Shown: piece after piece, positions 7,124-40,238 of the stretch | Position numbering within the stretch: position 1 is the stretch's first letter | Layout: each line of letters begins with the position of its first letter | IMG/VR virus record: IMGVR_UViG_3300028191_000002 | Span: 1 to 54,160 of that record | From: a virus | Taxonomy: Duplodnaviria > Caudoviricetes | Direction: 5' to 3' (one strand) | DNA length: 54,160 nucleotides | Made by a program: the position numbers and the translations under genes | The notes under the pieces: model-generated | What the model was told of the DNA's origin: nothing | The model's input: the letters and a program-made list of their open reading frames with translations, nothing else | Database searches by the model: none

Positions 7124-9027
7124 GTTTAGTAAATCTATACAAACCAAATGATTTTCAGGCAGTAACAGGTATCGTAGCAGGTAATCTGTTGAACTCCTAT
7201 CGTCTAATGGATCACATTGATTTTAGGCAGGGGACGTTCCAAGATGGAGCCCCAGCATGGATTGATTCTATACGCCCATATGCGGAATATGGAAGTGGTA
7301 AAGGTATCTTACGGTGGAATCCAAAAATGTATTCTGGTGCTTATGTAAAGTCAGTAGTATACGATTTTATTCCAAATACTTGGTATTATAATGGACAAAC
7401 AGTATGGTATGCTAATAATTTCTGGTACTTTATTGGTGATGAAGGCACAGTAGTACCCACACCAGCGGTAGGGGTGAGTTGGCAGTTATATGAAACTTGG
7501 GTTCAACTAGCACCAGAAACGGGCTACCCCGTCGGAGCTCGTGTAAGAAGAAATGGTTTACTGTTCTCAAGCTGGACGAATAACAATGCTACTGACCCGC
7601 TAATAAATGAAAACTTAGACTGGGAAGAAGTTGTGCAGCACGGTACTCAGTATGCCCCAACACCATACACTCCGAGAAATGCGGAAGAGGCATATGCGTG
7701 TGAAGTTTATATGGGAAGCAATGGGTACTGGGGCGGTGTGTTGTCGTTTGGTGCCTATGCTTATGGAACAGCGAATACTGTTGGTACTACCGCAGCACCA
7801 TTGTATGGATACTTTGACTTCAACGGATTCAAGATTTACAATATGTACATGGATCGTCGGGTTACCGAGACCATGGCAGGGGTAGGTAGTTCTACTAACA
7901 ATCCAAGTGCAAGTCAAAGAGCGGCTTTAATACCATACCTTGGAATAGCTACTGGCGATCCGTTCAATGGATCAACACCAAACTTTGATAGCCCGTGCAT
8001 CTTAAGCACAAATAGTTCAAGTGTTGTCTATTCCACCAGCTATAGTACAAGTTACCCGGATCCTATGACAGGCGGTATAGTTATTAGAAATGGCTTCGTT
8101 CTGAACCAGAATAGATTAGGTGGTATGGTGAGTAATAACAATACCCTCCAAATTTTAGGTGATGTTGATGTAGAAGGACGGCTGGTTAACCTAATGTTAC
8201 GAACAACCGCAGAAACGACCCAGGTAGGGTTTGTGTGTGGTAATTATCAGATATTAAGGCTCACAGAAGGAGACGTTTGCAACCAGGGCAATATTCGAGT
8301 TCGTGGTTCGATGTATATTGGACGTCCGGCGGTGTTGATTGGTGGTTTGTATGGGCGAATAAATATGTCTTCAGGATTACCACACACTTACAACTGGGGT
8401 AATATTGACGTAGAAGTAGATATAGAAATCAACGGTGTCTCCGGATTAGCTACTGGCATAAACACCAACAGCGTTGGATTGTTTGTTGGACATACTGCGA
8501 ACACAGACGTTACACTACCAGCCTGGGTGTGCAATCTGAAAAACGTCCTCTTGAAAGGATCTGTAACACAGCTTTGGGTCGAAGGACAACCGGCGTGCAA
8601 TATCAGCGGCTTGCTTGGTAAGAATACTGCTACGTGTACTTTTAATGTTGAGTCATTAGTGGCCGTGTTGGATTTGTCAAACCAGGCCGGCGATTGTTAT
8701 GCAATTTGTTTTGAGAATCTTGGTGTGGTTGAGATAGATAGTTTATATTATGTTGGTATATCTGGAGAAATAGTTGGAATAGGGACAGACGTAGATGCTA
8801 TACCACATGTGTTAACCTTGGATGGAATGAAAATCCAAAGCAATTTTACAGAATTAGATTTTGATGGTGATTGGATAATGAGTGCCTTTACGCCGATGCT
8901 GCGGGATTTTACTTTAGAAGAGATTGGCGTCTTTGAGCAGAATAATATAGTAATCACTGTTAACGTAGAGAAGAATAACTTTATGTGCGTTAATAGTTTG
9001 GTTTCTTCAAATAACTCCGTTTGCTAA
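7120..9027 (+). CDS. Putative virion appendage/adhesin with CBM5/12-like aromatic modules and a beta-rich C-terminus
   Basis: WYYNGQTVWY..NFW and YPVGARVRRNG...DP....W modules; N/G/V-rich body. Confidence 0.5.
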   Translation: MSLVNLYKPNDFQAVTGIVAGNLLNSYRLMDHIDFRQGTFQDGAPAWIDSIRPYAEYGSGKGILRWNPKMYSGAYVKSVVYDFIPNTWYYNGQTVWYANNFWYFIGDEGTVVPTPAVGVSWQLYETWVQLAPETGYPVGARVRRNGLLFSSWTNNNATDPLINENLDWEEVVQHGTQYAPTPYTPRNAEEAYACEVYMGSNGYWGGVLSFGAYAYGTANTVGTTAAPLYGYFDFNGFKIYNMYMDRRVTETMAGVGSSTNNPSASQRAALIPYLGIATGDPFNGSTPNFDSPCILSTNSSSVVYSTSYSTSYPDPMTGGIVIRNGFVLNQNRLGGMVSNNNTLQILGDVDVEGRLVNLMLRTTAETTQVGFVCGNYQILRLTEGDVCNQGNIRVRGSMYIGRPAVLIGGLYGRINMSSGLPHTYNWGNIDVEVDIEINGVSGLATGINTNSVGLFVGHTANTDVTLPAWVCNLKNVLLKGSVTQLWVEGQPACNISGLLGKNTATCTFNVESLVAVLDLSNQAGDCYAICFENLGVVEIDSLYYVGISGEIVGIGTDVDAIPHVLTLDGMKIQSNFTELDFDGDWIMSAFTPMLRDFTLEEIGVFEQNNIVITVNVEKNNFMCVNSLVSSNNSVC

Positions 9028-19418: not shown

Positions 19419-20060
19419 CTATCTCAGCCCAGTAATTTTCTGAACCTGTAAAGACAGGTGGTAACCATAACTCAAGCAGAGTTTGATACAATGGTTGACA
19501 TTTAGTTGATTTTGCTTTTCGTCTTTCTCATCCATAGGCTGGACGTAAATCTTATTTATGTATCTGCTATGCATTGGCTGGAAACAGAATTTTGGTAAAC
19601 CATCTAAAAGTTCAGTGTCAATACTGATTATATACTTCCACTGGTTAACTAAAAGATGATCCTTGACGGGGACAGGCTGATGCTCTTTCGGCGAACACGT
19701 GATAAAGACATTGGGGTAGTTTAAGATAGAATAGTCAATCATTGTGCCATTCGTCTCAATCTCAATACGCCGTTTGTTCTTCCACGTGAACCGGGTAAGC
19801 TCAAAGAGCAGGCTATGAAGATCTTGCAGAAATGGTTCTCCGCCAGTTATCACAACCATGGAGGTATAGGATGCTGGAGATACTGAATTCACGTGATCCA
19901 CAATTTCAGCCGCGGTCATCTTCATCGCCACCTGGTGCTGAGTATCACAAAAAGAACATTTCAAGTTACAACCAGCTAAACGTATAAACGTCGCCGGGGA
20001 ACCACTTTTCTCTCCTTCCCCTTGTAGGGAATGGAAAATTTCGTTAACATCGTAAATCAT
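19419..20060 (-). CDS. queE: 7-carboxy-7-deazaguanine synthase (radical SAM)
   Basis: EIFHSLQGEG...FIRLAGCNLKCSFCDT, ITGGEP, IETNG, CSPK, LSLQ..K. Confidence 0.93.
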   Translation of the reverse strand: MIYDVNEIFHSLQGEGEKSGSPATFIRLAGCNLKCSFCDTQHQVAMKMTAAEIVDHVNSVSPASYTSMVVITGGEPFLQDLHSLLFELTRFTWKNKRRIEIETNGTMIDYSILNYPNVFITCSPKEHQPVPVKDHLLVNQWKYIISIDTELLDGLPKFCFQPMHSRYINKIYVQPMDEKDEKQNQLNVNHCIKLCLSYGYHLSLQVQKITGLR

Positions 20061-29602: not shown

Positions 29603-30136
29603 ATGGAAAGACAGAAATTGATAACGTGTAGCATTGGTTGGGAAGAGGTAGAAGGTTACGCTTATACTATCGCTTCCAGGAACGTTTGGAAGACATCCCC
29701 AGTATACAGTATCGAGGATTTATTGCAAGAAGCGTTTTTCTGCTACCAGACAATCTTTGACCAGTATCACGTTGAGAAGGTAGCCCATTTTATGCGGTTA
29801 TTTGGAGTCTCCTTTTATCGTCGAATTCTTCATATTGCGGACAACGTAAGTGCCAGAAGATTGGCGGAAGAAGAATGGATTAAAGAGGCCAAGCTATGGT
29901 ATGAAGAAGACGACATCCTGCTTGGCTTGGTCGTAGAAGGTGGGGACGGTGTTTTTGAAACGGTAATAAAAAGTCTTGGTATAAACCGGGATTTGGATAG
30001 GACAGCAGTTCCGCTTTTTACGAAGTACGAAGATGGTAGTAGAGAAACGATCCACCAGTGGTTAGAGAAAATCTCTGGTTTGGATATAGCAATAGTAACC
30101 GAAATTATAGAAACCAAGATTGGAGTAAAAGTATGA
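29603..30136 (+). CDS. Sigma70/ECF region-2-like transcription factor
   Basis: YAYTIA...IEDLLQEAF....FDQY.....F resembles sigma region 2 (xEDLxQExF). Confidence 0.55.
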   Translation: MERQKLITCSIGWEEVEGYAYTIASRNVWKTSPVYSIEDLLQEAFFCYQTIFDQYHVEKVAHFMRLFGVSFYRRILHIADNVSARRLAEEEWIKEAKLWYEEDDILLGLVVEGGDGVFETVIKSLGINRDLDRTAVPLFTKYEDGSRETIHQWLEKISGLDIAIVTEIIETKIGVKV

Positions 30137-30555
30137 AGATTGGATTTAGTTTTGGCTTCGATGCCGCACACAGATTAATGGGTTACGACGGATTATGCAA
30201 GAATATCCACGGACACCATTGGCGGGTTGATATTGTGGTTGAAGGACCGGTCAGCCTTCTCACTGGGATGGTTATGGATTTCAAAGTTCTTAAGAAGCAC
30301 ATTAAGCATATAGAGGATCTGTATGACCACAGTTTGATTATGTGTGACCAAGATCCTCAGTTGGTTGGTATAACCCTGGTTTGTCCTGAGCAAAAGTTTC
30401 TTATACTCCCGACTATACCAACCGCAGAATTTATTGCTCAGGATATTAAGCGGAGACTTGAGTTAACATTACCACAGTTAGAAACCACTAACCATCGTTT
30501 GGTTATTGATAGTGTAACTGTTTACGAATCGTCCAATTGTTGGGCACAGATATAA
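30133..30555 (+). CDS. queD: 6-carboxytetrahydropterin synthase
   Basis: FDAAHRL....CKNIHGH...GMVMDF...DH...PTAE...V.VYES. Confidence 0.93.
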   Translation: MKIGFSFGFDAAHRLMGYDGLCKNIHGHHWRVDIVVEGPVSLLTGMVMDFKVLKKHIKHIEDLYDHSLIMCDQDPQLVGITLVCPEQKFLILPTIPTAEFIAQDIKRRLELTLPQLETTNHRLVIDSVTVYESSNCWAQI

Positions 30556-30566
30556 GGAATACATTC

Positions 30567-31202
30567 ATGGCAAAGATTACTAGTATTAAGAATCAGATTT
30601 TGGCAGTAGCAAAAGTTGCTAAGAAGCGTTATGAGAAACCGGACGACTTTGTTCGCAGAGTGATAAGAGCGGTCAATCAGTTGACTGACGAAGACTGGGC
30701 ATTGCTCCCAGATAGTGCTCAGGTATGGGCTAACGAAGCTATCATTGCTTATCACTCTGATAACTCAATCACGGCGTTCCCCGGCGAAGAAGAGGAAATG
30801 GCTTCCGTTACTGCTCCGCCGGTAGTAGAAATACCAGTAGAAGTGGTGGCTCCAGCACCAGCATCGGCGGTGCAGTTTAAGCCACAAGCACCTACTTTCG
30901 TGGGTCCGCCAGAACCATACATAGGACCAGCAATCGCAGATAAGATTAAGCCGAAGATTGGTGGTGGACGCAGGTTTGATGAACTTTGCGTTTTACATCC
31001 GACTATGAATTGGTTGGAAGTATTAGCTCTTCTTGAGGACGAGGGTTATCGAATCTCAGCAAATACGGCAACTGTCCGTTTTTACGAGACTTGGAGATTC
31101 CTTCAGACTCTTGACAAGATGGGTATGCTAAAGCAAGCATGGCCGAAAGAGCTTCCTAAGTCACCAGGTTTGAAATTGGCTGAAGAACCCGTAAAACCGT
31201 AA
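30567..31202 (+). CDS. Hypothetical two-domain protein with Pro/Ala linker, inside the que cluster
   Basis: AAGGA RBS. Confidence 0.6.
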   Translation: MAKITSIKNQILAVAKVAKKRYEKPDDFVRRVIRAVNQLTDEDWALLPDSAQVWANEAIIAYHSDNSITAFPGEEEEMASVTAPPVVEIPVEVVAPAPASAVQFKPQAPTFVGPPEPYIGPAIADKIKPKIGGGRRFDELCVLHPTMNWLEVLALLEDEGYRISANTATVRFYETWRFLQTLDKMGMLKQAWPKELPKSPGLKLAEEPVKP

Positions 31203-31215
31203 GCAGGAGTTTATA

Positions 31216-31872
31216 ATGAAACCAAAAGCATTATTAGCATTCTCAGGCGGGTTAGATTCTACAGTTGCGTTATTTATAATGACGAAGCTTTGGAATTGGG
31301 ATGTTAAAGCTGTCGGTTTTAACTATGGGCAGAAGAATATAATAGAGCTGGAGAGGGCACGGCAAATCGCCACCCTCGCCGGTTCTGAATTTGAAGTCAT
31401 AGATATACCAACGGCAATCTTCGGTTCGTCCAGCACTATGCTGGTAACAGGTGGGGAGATTATAAATTATGAAATAGTTGACCCAGCCTACGATACCAGA
31501 ATTGATTTTATTGTCCCAGCAAGAAATCTGCTATTCCTGGTCATCTTGGGTATTAGAGCAGAGGTAGAAGGAATCCCGGTTATAGCATATGGTGCGATAA
31601 CACAGGATCACGGATACCCAGATTGTACTCCTGAATTTGTCACTGCTACGGAAAAGGCATTGACGGCGGCAATTGGTCAGCAACACGCTGCGATTATGGC
31701 ACCAGTCATCTATTATACTAAGGAAGAGTTGGTTGCTTTGGCAAAGACAATCCCTGGTTGTATGGACGCGTTGGAACTGTCGTATACCTGCTATGTTGGT
31801 GGGGCAGAAGAGTGTGGGCACTGTGAAGCCTGTACATGTAAACAAGAGGCGTTTGGAAAAAAGAAAGGTTAG
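31216..31872 (+). CDS. queC: 7-cyano-7-deazaguanine synthase
   Basis: FSGGLDS, FNYGQ, VPARN, YPDC, SYTCY...CGHCEAC. Confidence 0.92.
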   Translation: MKPKALLAFSGGLDSTVALFIMTKLWNWDVKAVGFNYGQKNIIELERARQIATLAGSEFEVIDIPTAIFGSSSTMLVTGGEIINYEIVDPAYDTRIDFIVPARNLLFLVILGIRAEVEGIPVIAYGAITQDHGYPDCTPEFVTATEKALTAAIGQQHAAIMAPVIYYTKEELVALAKTIPGCMDALELSYTCYVGGAEECGHCEACTCKQEAFGKKKG

Positions 31873-31873
31873 T

Positions 31874-32782
31874 ATGGAAAAGAAAGTAGTTACCATAGCA
31901 GAGGTTCGAAATGCTGCCGAAATCGTAGCACAGAAAATTAACCATTGGAAGTTCAGTAACCAGCACCAGCATCCTCTACGGATATTTGGTGTTCCGAAGG
32001 GCGGATGGCACGCCGTAATTGCAGTGCTAAGCTGCTCAGTTGCTTTAGACGCTGTGGTTACTTATAACGTTAATGACGCAGATGTGATAGTTGACGATGT
32101 TATTGATTCCGGAGCAACCAGGAATCGGTATAACGATAATCCGGAAATTGATGCTCCATTCTTCGCTCTATTTGATAGACCACTAAAGTGGTTAGTTTTT
32201 CCTTGGGAAGTAGACGAAGAAGGCTCGGCATTGGATATTCCAACCCGGCTACTACAGTATATAGGTGAGGATACTACACGGGGTGGGCTACTTGAAACCC
32301 CAGCACGAATACTGAAGGCGTGGAAGTTTTGGACAGACGGTTATAACATTGACCCAGCATCTGTATTCAAAACGTTCACTGATGGAGCGGAACTTTACAA
32401 TCAAAATCAGATGGTAGTAGTTAAGAATATCCCGGTATGGTCAATGTGTGAGCATCATTTAGCACCGTTCTTTGGGACAGTATGCATTGCCTATATACCG
32501 GACAAGCAAATAGTTGGTTTGTCAAAGTTCTCACGATTGGTGGATATATACGCTCGTCGGTTACAAGTACAAGAGCGGTTGACCAATCAAATTGCCCAGG
32601 CAATTACTGATATTCTCAAGCCGAAAGGTTCGGCAGTGCTATTGGAATGTAGGCACTCATGTATGGAAAGTCGTGGAGTGCAAAAAGCAGGCATTGAGAC
32701 GATTACGTCGGACGTCCGCGGACTGTTTCTTACTGACCAATCAGTGAAAAGTGAATTTCTCCGGCTGATAGGAAGAAGTTAA
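31874..32782 (+). CDS. folE: Fusion of purine phosphoribosyltransferase-like domain and GTP cyclohydrolase I
   Basis: N-terminus: GVPKGG, IVDDVIDSGAT, WLVFPWE. C-terminus: GED..R.GL.ETP.R, SMCEHH, GLSK, RLQVQERLT, HSCM..RG. Confidence 0.9.
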   Translation: MEKKVVTIAEVRNAAEIVAQKINHWKFSNQHQHPLRIFGVPKGGWHAVIAVLSCSVALDAVVTYNVNDADVIVDDVIDSGATRNRYNDNPEIDAPFFALFDRPLKWLVFPWEVDEEGSALDIPTRLLQYIGEDTTRGGLLETPARILKAWKFWTDGYNIDPASVFKTFTDGAELYNQNQMVVVKNIPVWSMCEHHLAPFFGTVCIAYIPDKQIVGLSKFSRLVDIYARRLQVQERLTNQIAQAITDILKPKGSAVLLECRHSCMESRGVQKAGIETITSDVRGLFLTDQSVKSEFLRLIGRS

Positions 32783-32783
32783 A

Positions 32784-32999
32784 ATGTATATTTGTGGCAT
32801 ATATCTTACCCGGACAAGAAAGAGGAAGTTAGAGTTGCGAGCAATTGCTTCTTTAATCTTGTCTACGAACGCAGATTCGACCTTAGCAAGGGAGAAAGAA
32901 GCTGCAGCAAGGATTAAAACCTTGCAAGAACAAATAGGACTTCAGGAAACGATGATAAAAGAAAGGAAGGCTTTCGACGATGCCAGAAAAGAAAATTAA
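32784..32999 (+). CDS. Small hypothetical coiled-coil protein
   Basis: Fills the gap between folE and dpdA-like gene. Confidence 0.45.
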   Translation: MYICGIYLTRTRKRKLELRAIASLILSTNADSTLAREKEAAARIKTLQEQIGLQETMIKERKAFDDARKEN

Positions 33000-34029
33000 G
33001 ATTTGGTTAGACAGTGGTGCTTATAGCGTATGGAATCGTGGTGAGACAATCGACCTGACTGGGTACATTGATTTCATTCACCGCAATAAGCATAACTTAG
33101 AATACTACGTGAACCTGGATGTGATACCCGGGGTCAAGCTCCGAGAATCGACACCACAGGAAGTAGAAGATTCCGCCAGAAAAGGATTTGAGAATATGCT
33201 GCGAATGAGAAAAGAAGGTCTCGATCCAATGCCAGTATATCACTATGGTGAGAAAAGGGAGTGGCTGGAAAAGATGGTCGACCTTGGTTGTTCTTATATC
33301 GGTTTAGCATTGGGACGACAGGGAGCAGATCCTAATGCAAGGAAGTGGCTGGATGCTATCTTCCAATACTTATGCCATACCCCTACTGGCTTTCCTACGG
33401 TTAAGCTACACGGATTTGGTTTAACCGTGGTCCCCTTCCTGCTGCGATATCCTTGGTTTTCAGTGGATAGCACAACTTGGATATTCGCAGCAGCTTATGG
33501 TAGATGTCTGTTCCCGAGAATTGCAGCAAGCGGTGACTTTGATTTTTCAGTAGCGCCGTTGTATGTAGGGTTTACTGACAGGGATTCATCTCCTATGCTC
33601 GAGAAGCATAATTATTATGATTCTGTAGGAGACACAATGAAAAAGTTTATCGCCAGATACATAGAATTCTCCGGATTGGCTATAACACCAGACTCGTTGA
33701 AAACTAATTACTACGACCGGTTGCGGATAAACGCCTTCTACTTTAAGCAGGTAGGTGTCCGCAATATCTTACGTCCGTATGACGTACCAGTAGTAAGCGG
33801 CTTCTTTGACAAGCAGGTCTTTAAGACACTACCGGCGGCAGTGCTTCCCGAGCATCTACAGATGGTAAATGCAGTTGGGTTAAATGCAGCATTCAATGAA
33901 ATACTGAATGACGTAGATTCTAACAATCGTCTTATATCCTACGCGGATATGGGTAAAAATGATACTGAGACAATAGAACGCCTTGTAACGACAGGCAAGG
34001 TAAGAGAGGACAAAGATGGAACGAAGTGA
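32980..34029 (+). CDS. dpdA: TGT-fold DNA 7-deazaguanine transglycosylase (DpdA-like)
   Basis: LDSGAYS, NLDVI, PVYH, LHGFG, SVDSTTW equivalent to TGT catalytic Asp motifs; adjacent to queC/folE/queD. Confidence 0.75.
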   Translation: MPEKKIKIWLDSGAYSVWNRGETIDLTGYIDFIHRNKHNLEYYVNLDVIPGVKLRESTPQEVEDSARKGFENMLRMRKEGLDPMPVYHYGEKREWLEKMVDLGCSYIGLALGRQGADPNARKWLDAIFQYLCHTPTGFPTVKLHGFGLTVVPFLLRYPWFSVDSTTWIFAAAYGRCLFPRIAASGDFDFSVAPLYVGFTDRDSSPMLEKHNYYDSVGDTMKKFIARYIEFSGLAITPDSLKTNYYDRLRINAFYFKQVGVRNILRPYDVPVVSGFFDKQVFKTLPAAVLPEHLQMVNAVGLNAAFNEILNDVDSNNRLISYADMGKNDTETIERLVTTGKVREDKDGTK

Positions 34030-38637: not shown

Positions 38638-39138
38638 ATGGTTACGAAACAAGAGTTACTGATAGACAAGAATGAGTTGGACAGGGAGCTGATAGAACAG
38701 GCTTCACAGTATCATGCTTCGGGAGAAGAGTATGCCAAGGCACAATCTCGCGTAGCATATCTTAAGGACCAGTTGTCCGCATTACAGGCATCAATCGATA
38801 GAGAGATTCGCCAGCAGGCATCTGAGGACAATGAGAAGGTTTCCGAGACCTTGGTTTTTAATCGAGTTGTGATGGACGACCGGTATCGTGCAATGAATAT
38901 GGAAGTGCTACAAGCAAGGGAGGCTATGGAAAGTGCCGGTTCCTTACGTGATTCCTTTGCCCAACGTGCTTTCGCTTTGAAGGATTTAGTAGTATTGTAT
39001 ACCAGTGGTTATTTTGCAAGAAGTTGCGAAAAGGGTGTACCTCAAGCAACGCAAGATGCTATGGTGGATGATTATAGAAAAGGCATCAACGCTACACGCG
39101 TACGTCTAAACATGGCGATGCCACAGAAAGGAAGATGA
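38638..39138 (+). CDS. UvsY-like recombination mediator (helical)
   Basis: L.IDK..LD.E...Q N-terminus, all-helical, located before SSB and RecA. Confidence 0.55.
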   Translation: MVTKQELLIDKNELDRELIEQASQYHASGEEYAKAQSRVAYLKDQLSALQASIDREIRQQASEDNEKVSETLVFNRVVMDDRYRAMNMEVLQAREAMESAGSLRDSFAQRAFALKDLVVLYTSGYFARSCEKGVPQATQDAMVDDYRKGINATRVRLNMAMPQKGR

Positions 39139-40238
39139 TTATGGCTTTTCAATACCAGGAAAGAACAAAGCAAGCAGTCCAGAAAAGGGCTACACAGAAG
39201 GGTGGATCGTTTGATTCCATCTTCAAACAACAGTTTGATTCCTTTTCAGTAAAAGAAGGGGACCAAAGAATTCGCATACTTCCACCAACGTGGGAAAATG
39301 CTGAGCATTATGGCATCGATATATATGTTCATTATGGCGTTGGGCCAGATGAGCAAACATATCTTTGTCTTGAGAAGAATGACGATATGATGGCATTGTT
39401 AGGTATGCCTTCGGAAGTATGCCCGTGTTGTGAAGAAAGGCGAAAAGCGGAAGCGGAAGGCATGACCGAATATGCGGACAGTTTGTATGTAACCAAACGC
39501 GTTCTTGTGTGGATGATAAATAGGGCGGACGAAGATGCTGGTCCTATACTATGGTCAATGCCGTGGACGATAGACCGGGATATGGCATCAGTCAGTATGG
39601 ATAAAGCATCTGGCGAATACCTTTGCATTGACCATCCGACAGAAGGATATGATGCTGTCTTTACTAAAGAGGGTAAGGGGCAGAAGACCAAATATATTGG
39701 TATGCAGATAGCAAGACGAGCTACACCACTATTCGCCGATAAGGAATTGGTGGATTTGACACTTGAGTTTATTGTTAAGAATCCACTGCCATCTGTCCTC
39801 AATTTTTATCCTGCGGACTATATTGCGAACATCTTTGCCGGAAGTGCAGAAGTGGAAGCAGCGGCAGAAGCAACAGCAGCACCAGCCGCAGCACCACAAA
39901 CGCGAGCTGAAGCAGCAGCCTTTTCAGTAGCGGATGTTCCTTTTGACGATGGACAGCCCTATGAGGAAGAAGTTGCAGCACCGCCACTGGCTCCAGCACC
40001 AGCACCGGCTCCAGCACCAAGGACAAGGACTCGTGTAGCAGATATAGTTCCGGCTCCGGCACCAGCACCGGCTCCAGCACCAAGGACAAGAGCAGCAGCT
40101 CCAGCACCAGCACCGGCTCCAGCACCAAGGACAAGAGCAGCAGCACCGGCACCGGCTCCAGCACCAGCACCGGCTCCAGCGGCTGACGCTTCTTTAGCAG
40201 ATAGAAGAGCCCGTTTACGGGCAGCATTGAAGGATTAA
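39135..40238 (+). CDS. T4 gp32-like single-stranded DNA-binding protein with long Pro/Ala repeat tail
   Basis: IRILPP...HY...YLC...CPCC...GYD..F.K.G.G..TKY. Confidence 0.75.
   Translation: MIMAFQYQERTKQAVQKRATQKGGSFDSIFKQQFDSFSVKEGDQRIRILPPTWENAEHYGIDIYVHYGVGPDEQTYLCLEKNDDMMALLGMPSEVCPCCEERRKAEAEGMTEYADSLYVTKRVLVWMINRADEDAGPILWSMPWTIDRDMASVSMDKASGEYLCIDHPTEGYDAVFTKEGKGQKTKYIGMQIARRATPLFADKELVDLTLEFIVKNPLPSVLNFYPADYIANIFAGSAEVEAAAEATAAPAAAPQTRAEAAAFSVADVPFDDGQPYEEEVAAPPLAPAPAPAPAPRTRTRVADIVPAPAPAPAPAPRTRAAAPAPAPAPAPRTRAAAPAPAPAPAPAPAADASLADRRARLRAALKD
39990..40180 (+). repeat. Coding tandem repeats (APAPAPAPRTR)n in SSB tail
   Basis: gcaccagcaccggctccagcaccaaggacaag x3 plus partial units. 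Confidence 0.9.

Follow-up and report, generated by a model that had tools for sequence, protein, structure and literature searches.

Why should a phage that carries genes for 7-deazaguanine modification of its DNA attach a second, enzyme-like domain to the enzyme with which the pathway begins? This modification has been described as carried out by FolE, QueD, QueE and QueC together with DpdA; at the locus studied here, in IMG/VR virus record IMGVR_UViG_3300028191_000002, the gene for FolE (GTP cyclohydrolase I) encodes an extra, conserved N-terminal module. The record, a complete phage sequence whose 54,160 bp include direct terminal repeats, was analysed whole and is called the window below. 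The gene in question (31,874 to 32,782, + strand) is a single stop-free frame of 302 amino acids plus stop. An initial annotation, made from the sequence alone, had placed a GVPKGG motif, a phosphoribosyl pyrophosphate (PRPP)-binding loop and a WLVFPWE end in its first ~113 residues, in frame with an intact FolE and between queC and dpdA; translation and the Pfam and PHROG matches agree on all of these points. A key finding of our analysis is that residues 1 to 113 (31,874 to 32,212, +) are predicted, clearly at both the profile and the fold level, to form the core of a type I purine phosphoribosyltransferase (PRTase), nearest to Gpt/XGPRT. The domain appears to descend from Gpt-type PRTases and, as far as its sequence tells, is best called a loop-less Gpt-like variant. 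As to function, we favour recycling of guanine by a 6-oxopurine PRTase, a reading that we hold at slightly less than an even chance.

The domain is faint in searches with single sequences. Against the PDB, phmmer returned one chance match (mS34, E 0.12); the domain alone matched no NCBIfam family and no PHROG at E 0.001, PHROG 8995 included, and a 119-aa query gave no tblastn match at E 0.001 in 50,697 phage records. More central members of the family (P0037 and P0045) were needed as queries for the phage-record searches. A word-seeded search with residues 1 to 125 found 15 proteins, 14 of them with PF01227, and an exhaustive phmmer scan of 1.84 billion representatives gave 297 relatives at E ≤0.001, 22 of these at ≤1e-10 and none at 1e-30. 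The resulting family sample comprised 166 proteins, 74 with FolE sequence (52 of at least 280 aa, the window protein accounting for two of them, and 22 fragments below that length) and 92 without it (93 to 228 aa, bar one protein of 3038 aa). Family profiles built from 141 sequences (A2) and 87 sequences (A3) match XGPRT across the whole chain, profile positions 1 to 112 aligning with chain positions 1 to 140. E values are 2.3e-12 and 6.9e-12 for 6kp5 and 5xtk, 3.9e-11 and 1.7e-10 for E. coli 1a95, and 2.4e-10 and 5.1e-11 for the Pyrococcus horikoshii purine PRTase 1vdm. In the A3 search, the 18 sequences that score below E 0.01 are PRTases without exception, and 37 of 87 relatives match PF00156 at E ≤0.01.

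Predicted structures give the same picture. AlphaFold2 modelled residues 1 to 119 with a mean confidence (pLDDT) of 94.6, and every match that Foldseek listed for this model is a purine PRTase (E 1e-5 to 5e-4). In VIA-align the best matches were 1vdm (Z 11.3, 108 residues aligned, root-mean-square deviation 3.2) and E. coli XGPRT (Z 10.9 to 10.1), followed by Sulfolobus solfataricus HGXPRT (Z about 10.5) and a Gpt-like protein bound to ppGpp (5vog, 10.0); the top purine PRTases also included Yersinia XGPRT and Helicobacter pylori XGHPRT, with 106 to 111 aligned residues, and the regulator PyrR scored lower (8.6 to 8.8). The ESM Atlas returned viral clusters with PF01227 or PF00156 at scores of 0.85 to 0.90, which we treat as leads only. 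Profiles, AlphaFold2, Foldseek and VIA-align thus uphold the structural part of the initial annotation, a Gpt-like PRTase fused to an intact FolE.

Conservation is concentrated where a PRTase active site would lie. Among 141 family members G44, D75 and T82 are invariant, and P41, R42, G43, D74, D78, G80, F96, W106, F109, P110, W111 and E112 are kept in at least 90%. In the hidden Markov model alignment to XGPRT, the P-R-G-G consensus falls on S-R-G-G, DD..DSG.T on IDDLVDTGGT, and W..FPWE on WIEQPWD. The corresponding motifs of the window protein are P-K-G-G (residues 41 to 44; 31,994 to 32,005, +), which reads FGVPKGG in its wider context (residues 38 to 44), the PRPP-binding loop VIVDDVIDSGAT (residues 71 to 82; 32,084 to 32,119, +), which aligns with IVIDDLVDTGGT of XGPRT, and WLVFPWE (residues 106 to 112; 32,189 to 32,209, +), whose W106 aligns with the tryptophan of WIEQPWD. 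A family D-K pair maps into the stretch aligned with the FAKPAG lysine of XGPRT; R102 of the window protein lies in this stretch, and the residue is K in all 14 other fusions compared. From Gpt and HGPRT structures we take these conserved residues to be the pyrophosphate (PPi) loop, the acidic pair that binds Mg and ribose, the 5'-phosphate loop, the lysine that contacts the 6-oxo group and the stacking tryptophan, the last two presumably equivalent to Lys115 and Trp134 of E. coli Gpt. D78 presumably corresponds to the position that contacts the purine N7 in HGPRTs, N7 being absent from 7-deazaguanines. The PRTase core is followed by a helix whose arginine (R125) is invariant and which in the fusions forms the first helix of FolE; stand-alone members have a similar helix and then a short non-FolE tail.

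The remainder of the protein (residues 125 to 302; 32,246 to 32,782, +) is a type IA GTP cyclohydrolase I with the CEHH, SK..R, QE and H.C...R motifs intact. Residues 125 to 299 match PF01227 at E 9.3e-68, scoring 227.6 bits where the cut-off is 27, pass the NCBIfam folE equivalog TIGR00063 (209.7 against 181.6) and NF006825 (224.4 against 174), and match phrog_2197. The full-length model (pLDDT 95.5, pTM 0.85) finds Thermus thermophilus FolE 1wm9 at E 6e-22 in Foldseek. Solved chains are matched through the FolE half only (at most 198 alignment columns, TMq at most 0.58), and none of the 50 listed structures covers both domains. All the residues sought are present: C192, E193, H194, H195 (the CEHH of residues 192 to 195), H261, C263, R145, K148, S217, K218, R221, Q233, E234 and R267. 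Across 15 fusions G215, K218 and R221 are invariant, and S217, C192 to H195, H261, C263 and R267 are kept in at least 90%. By the E. coli numbering, we take the motifs CEHH, H.C, TP.R..K, SK..R and QE and the final R to supply the zinc ligands, the catalytic histidines and the residues that bind GTP and its triphosphate. By motif the FolE half is thus predicted to be canonical and catalytically complete, and it should use GTP rather than GMP because the triphosphate-binding residues are kept. We rejected the idea that the fused FolE takes GMP straight from the PRTase, since those residues, assigned from E. coli FolE, are present and conserved.

Is the fusion a peculiarity of one phage? Two scans of IMG/VR, restricted to the 80 best out of at least 258 confirmed relatives in the first and out of at least 184 in the second, indicate that it is widespread. 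The first scan had the domain and FolE in one open reading frame (ORF) in 80 of 80 loci; among 71 newly analysed loci of the second, 69 were fused, one was cut by a contig end and one was a natural split. Once identical ORFs had been collapsed, 120 of 122 distinct IMG/VR homologues carried the FolE fusion, a number of distinct sequences on which we reject an artefact or chimera. At least one of queC, queD and queE was found in 118 of these 122 loci, the remaining four having at most 439 bp of upstream sequence. Within the 55 loci flanked by at least 4 kb on both sides, queE was present in 55, queD in 50, dpdA in 49 and queC in 36; the counts come from phmmer with the window's own proteins as single-sequence queries, so that divergent DpdA and QueC are undercounted. 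The possibility, raised in the initial annotation, that such fusions are common away from dpd and que genes does not hold for viruses; it holds only for one bacterial clade, in which the FolE half is degenerate.

Two kinds of locus stand apart within this set. The natural split (L156, positions 7863 to 9005 of a 170-kb IMG/VR contig) has queD, then a stand-alone mini-PRTase that ends in a helix resembling FolE helix 1, and, 12 bases further on, a folE gene with its own copy of helix 1. A complex prediction for this FolE and the stand-alone mini-PRTase, run without controls, returned 'no answer' with a score of 0.00 and counts neither way. In 19 of the 55 well-flanked loci (e.g. L012, L022, L025, L048, L059 and L153) nothing matched the window QueC, with queD, queE and mostly dpdA present; these may be clusters for modification of the 7-carboxy-7-deazaguanine (CDG) or 7-deazaguanine (DG) type, or may have a divergent QueC.

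Cultured phages carry the module as well. The window protein matches 391 GenBank phage records, 12 of them over at least 80% of its length, and the P0045 query finds the mini-PRTase at E ≤0.01 in 38 records, from phages of Pseudomonas (18), Vibrio (7), Flavobacterium (4), Stenotrophomonas (3), Variovorax (2), Xanthomonas (2) and Sphingomonas (2). The fusion is present in the Queuovirinae VpKK5, NP1 and PaMx25. In Vibrio phage VpKK5 it is gp32 (300 aa), annotated 'GTP cyclohydrolase', in the same gene order as in the window. Pseudomonas phage PaMx25 (NC_041953.1; L003 5785 to 6678) has a continuous mini-PRTase-FolE ORF of 297 aa, and its queC product, of 466 aa, is read here as Gat-QueC. RefSeq gives PaMx25 two products in its place, a 'hypothetical protein' of 124 aa read out of frame (gp38) and a folE product of 191 aa (gp37), which hides the N-terminal domain; a frameshifted or split fusion was rejected for this phage, as nothing interrupts the 297-aa ORF and the gene called upstream lies in another frame.

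An unfused arrangement occurs in Flavobacterium phage immuto_2-6A, in which gp211, a 'phosphoribosyl transferase' of 131 aa, is encoded immediately upstream of folE (gp210) in a cluster with queD, queE, dpdA, a formyltransferase and queF. This phage is reported to carry fdPreQ1 with complete replacement of G (PMC10516641). The PHROG for such proteins, phrog_8995 ('phosphoribosyl transferase'), is matched by 52 of 87 stand-alone relatives. Cellulophaga phage phiST, for which complete replacement by dDG is reported (PMC10516641), has an annotated phosphoribosyl transferase (CGPG_00045; L084 8965 to 9393) two genes upstream of ribonucleotide reductase; it meets the mini-PRTase query at E = 1 only, and its kinship is unproven.

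Cellular genomes add a second setting. A scan of 185,579 species genomes gave at least 49 loci, and among the 49 listed 18 are fusions. Three of these sit in phage-like clusters of que genes plus dpdA, and three accompany queD, in one case together with queE, on contigs shorter than 3 kb. The other 12 lie on chromosomes of Dehalococcoidia or Chloroflexi (L162, L164 to L173 and L199), and neither que nor dpd genes occur in the 8 kb around them; the genes around one of them encode Ada/Ogt, a peptidase, a cyclophilin and an enoyl-CoA hydratase. All 12 Chloroflexota proteins have other residues at the positions of H194, S217/K218 and H261, eight of them also at that of E234, and CE(N/R/K)H stands in place of CEHH. 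The PRTase half keeps all 16 positions checked, with R and K, the family consensus, at the positions of K42 and R102. Besides the fusion, which scores about 140 bits, each of five sampled Chloroflexota genomes encodes a canonical FolE of about 210 bits and one tRNA-type tRNA-guanine transglycosylase (TGT), and one of the five has a real QueC. PF01242 (queD) was found in none of the five, against 10 of 14 control genomes, and the window QueE query matched in none of them. The other 31 listed cellular loci are unfused and more distant, many of them encoding loop-less proteins of about 135 aa from Prochlorococcus and Synechococcus. The picocyanobacterial mini-PRTases (Prochlorococcus, Synechococcus and Cyanobium; L175, L178, L180 to L182, L186, L189, L193, L204 and others) read GVPRGG, VDDVYETG.T and W.VFPWE, with ETG replacing DSG in the PRPP loop, and their genes are not near que or folE.

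What, then, might the domain do? The fold, the homology to Gpt, the conservation of substrate-binding residues, the intact FolE and the tight viral linkage to que and dpdA genes are established. On this footing, we postulate that the protein helps to recycle guanine. Its C-terminal two thirds would act as the GTP cyclohydrolase I that starts synthesis of 7-cyano-7-deazaguanine (preQ0) by turning GTP into dihydroneopterin triphosphate (H2NTP), and residues 1 to 113 would act as a minimised Gpt-type PRTase that turns free guanine and PRPP into GMP (or xanthine or hypoxanthine into the nucleotide). The guanine supply would include the base expelled from phage DNA as DpdA inserts preQ0, and host kinases would return the GMP to the GTP pool used by FolE; removal of guanine may also ease competition at DpdA. 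That the loop-less domain catalyses, takes guanine as its base and feeds such a cycle during infection is our inference. A 6-oxopurine PRTase is favoured because the site is conserved, because it is kept without FolE catalysis or deazaguanine synthesis, and because it is tied to the GTP-consuming first step. Indeed, the domain accompanies FolE whatever the end product, in phages with QueC (the window and VpKK5), in PaMx25, in QueC-negative loci and in immuto. Salvage of guanine released by DpdA, proposed in the initial annotation, thereby survives as the proposed function with the best support; an exclusive tie to DpdA does not, given Chloroflexota genomes with no queD hit and one TGT each, of the tRNA type.

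Several observations weigh against guanine recycling, and the chief objection is the missing flap. Gpt residues 59 to 84 have no counterpart, about 22 residues being replaced by a short turn (profile positions 63 to 68 span Gpt 58 to 85), and the model of the domain has just 8 residues between the strands at 60 to 62 and 71 to 77. We take this gap to mark the place of loop II, the mobile catalytic loop that in type I PRTases joins the second core strand to the third and shuts over the transition state, and we know of no active purine PRTase without it. A second gap relative to Gpt, of about 11 residues, lies before the tryptophan. The window's own domain is also a marginal member of its superfamily, matching PF00156 at E 0.081 and 12.7 bits, below the threshold of 26.3 and over the PRPP loop only (residues 71 to 82), and it reads K42 and R102 in place of the R and K usual in the family; the first of these, in the PPi loop, is a conservative deviation. 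The mini-PRTase is, to judge from phage genomes, dispensable for the pathway, because 391 phage records have a FolE match and 38 a mini-PRTase match at E ≤0.01, none of the latter from phages of Escherichia (41 FolE records) or Mycobacterium (56). A PRTase, moreover, yields GMP and not GTP, and the fusion offers no direct channelling. Lastly, guanine released by DpdA cannot be the sole source of substrate for the domain, because Chloroflexota keep it without queD (none of five genomes), with queC in one of five and with only a tRNA-type TGT.

The missing flap lends itself to another reading, in which the domain is a non-catalytic sensor. Its ligand would be PRPP, guanine, a guanine nucleotide or (p)ppGpp, and through it the activity of the fused FolE decamer would be matched to the purine or stringent status of the infected cell. 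PRTase folds do serve as regulators, and both PyrR (Z 8.6 to 8.8) and the ppGpp-bound Gpt-like protein of Neisseria gonorrhoeae (5vog, Z 10.0) are among the fold matches above. HPRT is reported to be inhibited by (p)ppGpp through its PRPP motif (PMC6783271). The pTM of the full-length model suggests a fixed arrangement of the two domains, and mammalian FolE is controlled by a bound partner, GFRP, such complexes being among the fold matches of that model. A pure sensor would have little need of the chemistry residues, yet the acidic pair D74/D75, D78 and the PPi-loop arginine are kept in at least 90% of the family. A sensor joined to an inactive FolE is improbable, and the 12 Chloroflexota paralogues retain all these residues although their FolE half lacks catalytic and GTP-binding ones. 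Stand-alone forms (105 to 200 aa) without FolE in the same protein, the loop-less picocyanobacterial relatives included, likewise suggest a domain that works alone. The compact regulatory sensor mentioned in the initial annotation accordingly gains from the absent flap and loses to these degenerate-FolE paralogues and stand-alone forms, and we regard it as unlikely, though as the alternative that fares best.

Next comes the possibility that the domain has no role in guanine salvage, being either a structural or assembly appendage or an enzyme with other chemistry on a PRPP-like or nucleotide-like substrate. To our knowledge no activity has been assigned to any family member; the architecture outlasts FolE catalysis, so that the T-fold half might be a mere oligomeric scaffold, and the invariant E112 and R125, without counterparts in Gpt, hint at a modified active site. 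Against this, the conserved residues are those of a 6-oxopurine PRTase active site and every one of the closest solved folds is a purine PRTase, which leaves such a role doubtful.

A third alternative, the second of the functions suggested in the initial annotation, would make the domain a 7-deazaguanine PRTase of the TubE/ToyH type, transferring CDG, preQ0 or a derivative onto PRPP and either opening a nucleotide-level route to modified DNA or trapping the base in the cell. TubE, a PRPP transferase of 194 aa encoded beside FolE, QueD and QueE homologues, is described as specific for CDG in vitro (PMC6112128). Phages with complete replacement of G do have PRTase genes (immuto gp211 and, with the E = 1 given above, phiST CGPG_00045), a nucleoside form of 7-amido-7-deazaguanine (ADG) is reported from cells infected with CP220, and the activity of DpdA3 in E. 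coli could not be demonstrated (PMC10516641). On the other side, DpdA is present in 49 of the 55 well-flanked loci, and published evidence, as given in PMC10516641, favours insertion after replication. The same fusion recurs across clusters whose QueC type, and hence predicted end product, differs; the module goes with the enzyme that opens the pathway and not with the last one; and the family is kept in all five sampled Chloroflexota genomes, which have no match to PF01242 or to the window QueE and so appear incapable of making CDG. The aspartate at the presumed N7-contacting position is conserved as well. Ribosylation of preQ0 or CDG is accordingly disfavoured, and we consider it improbable.

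The surroundings of the fusion gene fit a deazaguanine cluster. Its ATG at 31,874 lies one base past the stop of queC and agrees with the N-termini of homologues; the public gene call (P0002, 319 aa) begins at a GTG 17 codons upstream, inside queC (31,823 to 31,873), and the homologue N-termini favour the ATG. The queC gene (preQ0 synthase; 31,216 to 31,872, +) encodes 218 aa with no Gat domain (PF06508, E 6.9e-44; TIGR00364, 148.3 bits), and queD (6-carboxytetrahydropterin (CPH4) synthase; 30,130 to 30,555, +) matches PF01242 at 8.6e-30 and TIGR03367 at 2e-23, its start being uncertain within the ORF at 30,058 to 30,555. A dpdA-like DNA transglycosylase gene follows at 32,980 to 34,029 (+); it matches phrog_887 at 7.9e-43 and occupies the position of the annotated transglycosylase of VpKK5 and PaMx25, and Pfam and NCBIfam searches with it gave no match. 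A queE gene (radical S-adenosylmethionine CDG synthase; 19,419 to 20,060) lies away from the cluster on the − strand; it matches PF04055, and its top NCBIfam matches are five QueE models, each under its own cut-off. Downstream of the cluster lie genes for a sliding clamp and for a DNA polymerase of family A, a gene order shared with Queuovirinae. Because QueC is a plain 218-aa protein and no amidotransferase or QueF was found in the cluster, the modified base of the phage is predicted to be dPreQ0, by the pathway logic set out in PMC6884629.

Three further ORFs of the window, all on the + strand, deserve mention. One of 71 aa (32,784 to 32,999), without a family match, separates the fusion gene from dpdA and shares its last 20 bases with the start of dpdA. 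Another, of 221 aa with a middle rich in Pro, Ala and Val (30,537 to 31,202), separates queD from queC; it has no match in Pfam, PHROG or NCBIfam and is absent by phmmer from all 200 related loci examined. The third, of 367 aa (39,135 to 40,238), has a C-terminal third made of repeated APAPAPAP-RTR(A/V) units in the ORF list.

Fused to FolE or encoded beside it, the module occurs in more than 100 distinct viral sequences and in cultured phages of Pseudomonas, Vibrio, Stenotrophomonas, Xanthomonas, Sphingomonas, Variovorax and Flavobacterium. If guanine recycling is correct, a stoichiometric loop would be closed in which the excised G becomes the precursor of its own replacement, and such recycling could set the extent of genome modification and hence the resistance of the phage to restriction and CRISPR. 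Were the domain instead to act on deazaguanine bases, the accepted post-replicative model would need revision: phages would make 7-deazaguanine nucleotides besides the free base, and complete replacement of G in DpdA3 phages such as immuto might be achieved partly through the nucleotide pool and not by base exchange alone. Shown to be active, or to be a sensor, the domain would be the first type I purine PRTase to do so without the mobile loop. We found no description of a mini-PRTase-FolE fusion in the literature on phage deazaguanines, DpdA and Gpt, supplements aside. The word 'phosphoribosyl' is absent from the main texts of PMC6884629, PMC10516641 and PMC10484667, whose supplements may list the gene, and in a paper on Far-T4 phages 'PRT' and 'GTP Ch' appear only as labels in a figure legend.

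How does the fusion compare with systems that are already known? The FolE of phage deazaguanine clusters, such as that of phage 9g, is the same canonical enzyme in the same queD/queE/queC/dpdA cluster logic, without the N-terminal domain seen here; the 9g protein is reported to complement E. coli folE (PMC6884629). TubE and ToyH, of tubercidin and toyocamycin synthesis, likewise represent a purine-type PRTase coupled genetically to FolE, QueD and QueE homologues, and we compared them by description only; they differ in being stand-alone enzymes of 194 aa in actinomycete secondary-metabolite clusters without transglycosylases (PMC6112128). The PHROG 8995 proteins (immuto gp211 and phiST CGPG_00045) are unfused PRTases, to which the window domain falls short of a match at E 0.001. 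The Chloroflexota (Dehalococcoidia) paralogues share the two-domain architecture and differ in being chromosomal, with a degenerate FolE half and, in the five sampled genomes, a canonical FolE elsewhere. Closest of all are Gpt/XGPRT (E. coli 1A95 to 1A98, 1NUL and 4JLS; Yersinia 5XTK and 6KP5) and the small 6-oxopurine PRTases of archaea (P. horikoshii 1VDM and S. solfataricus 4Z1O), with which the phage domain shares the type I core, colinear up to the W..PW(E/D) strand. With Gpt it has in common the (R/K)GG PPi loop, the DD..D(S/T)G.T loop, a basic residue before the stacking tryptophan and a similar size. Unlike Gpt, it has neither residues 59 to 84 nor about 11 residues before the tryptophan and stays below the PF00156 threshold; its tail is the helix with the invariant arginine, which runs on into FolE, and it is fused to, or encoded beside, the enzyme that opens the deazaguanine pathway.

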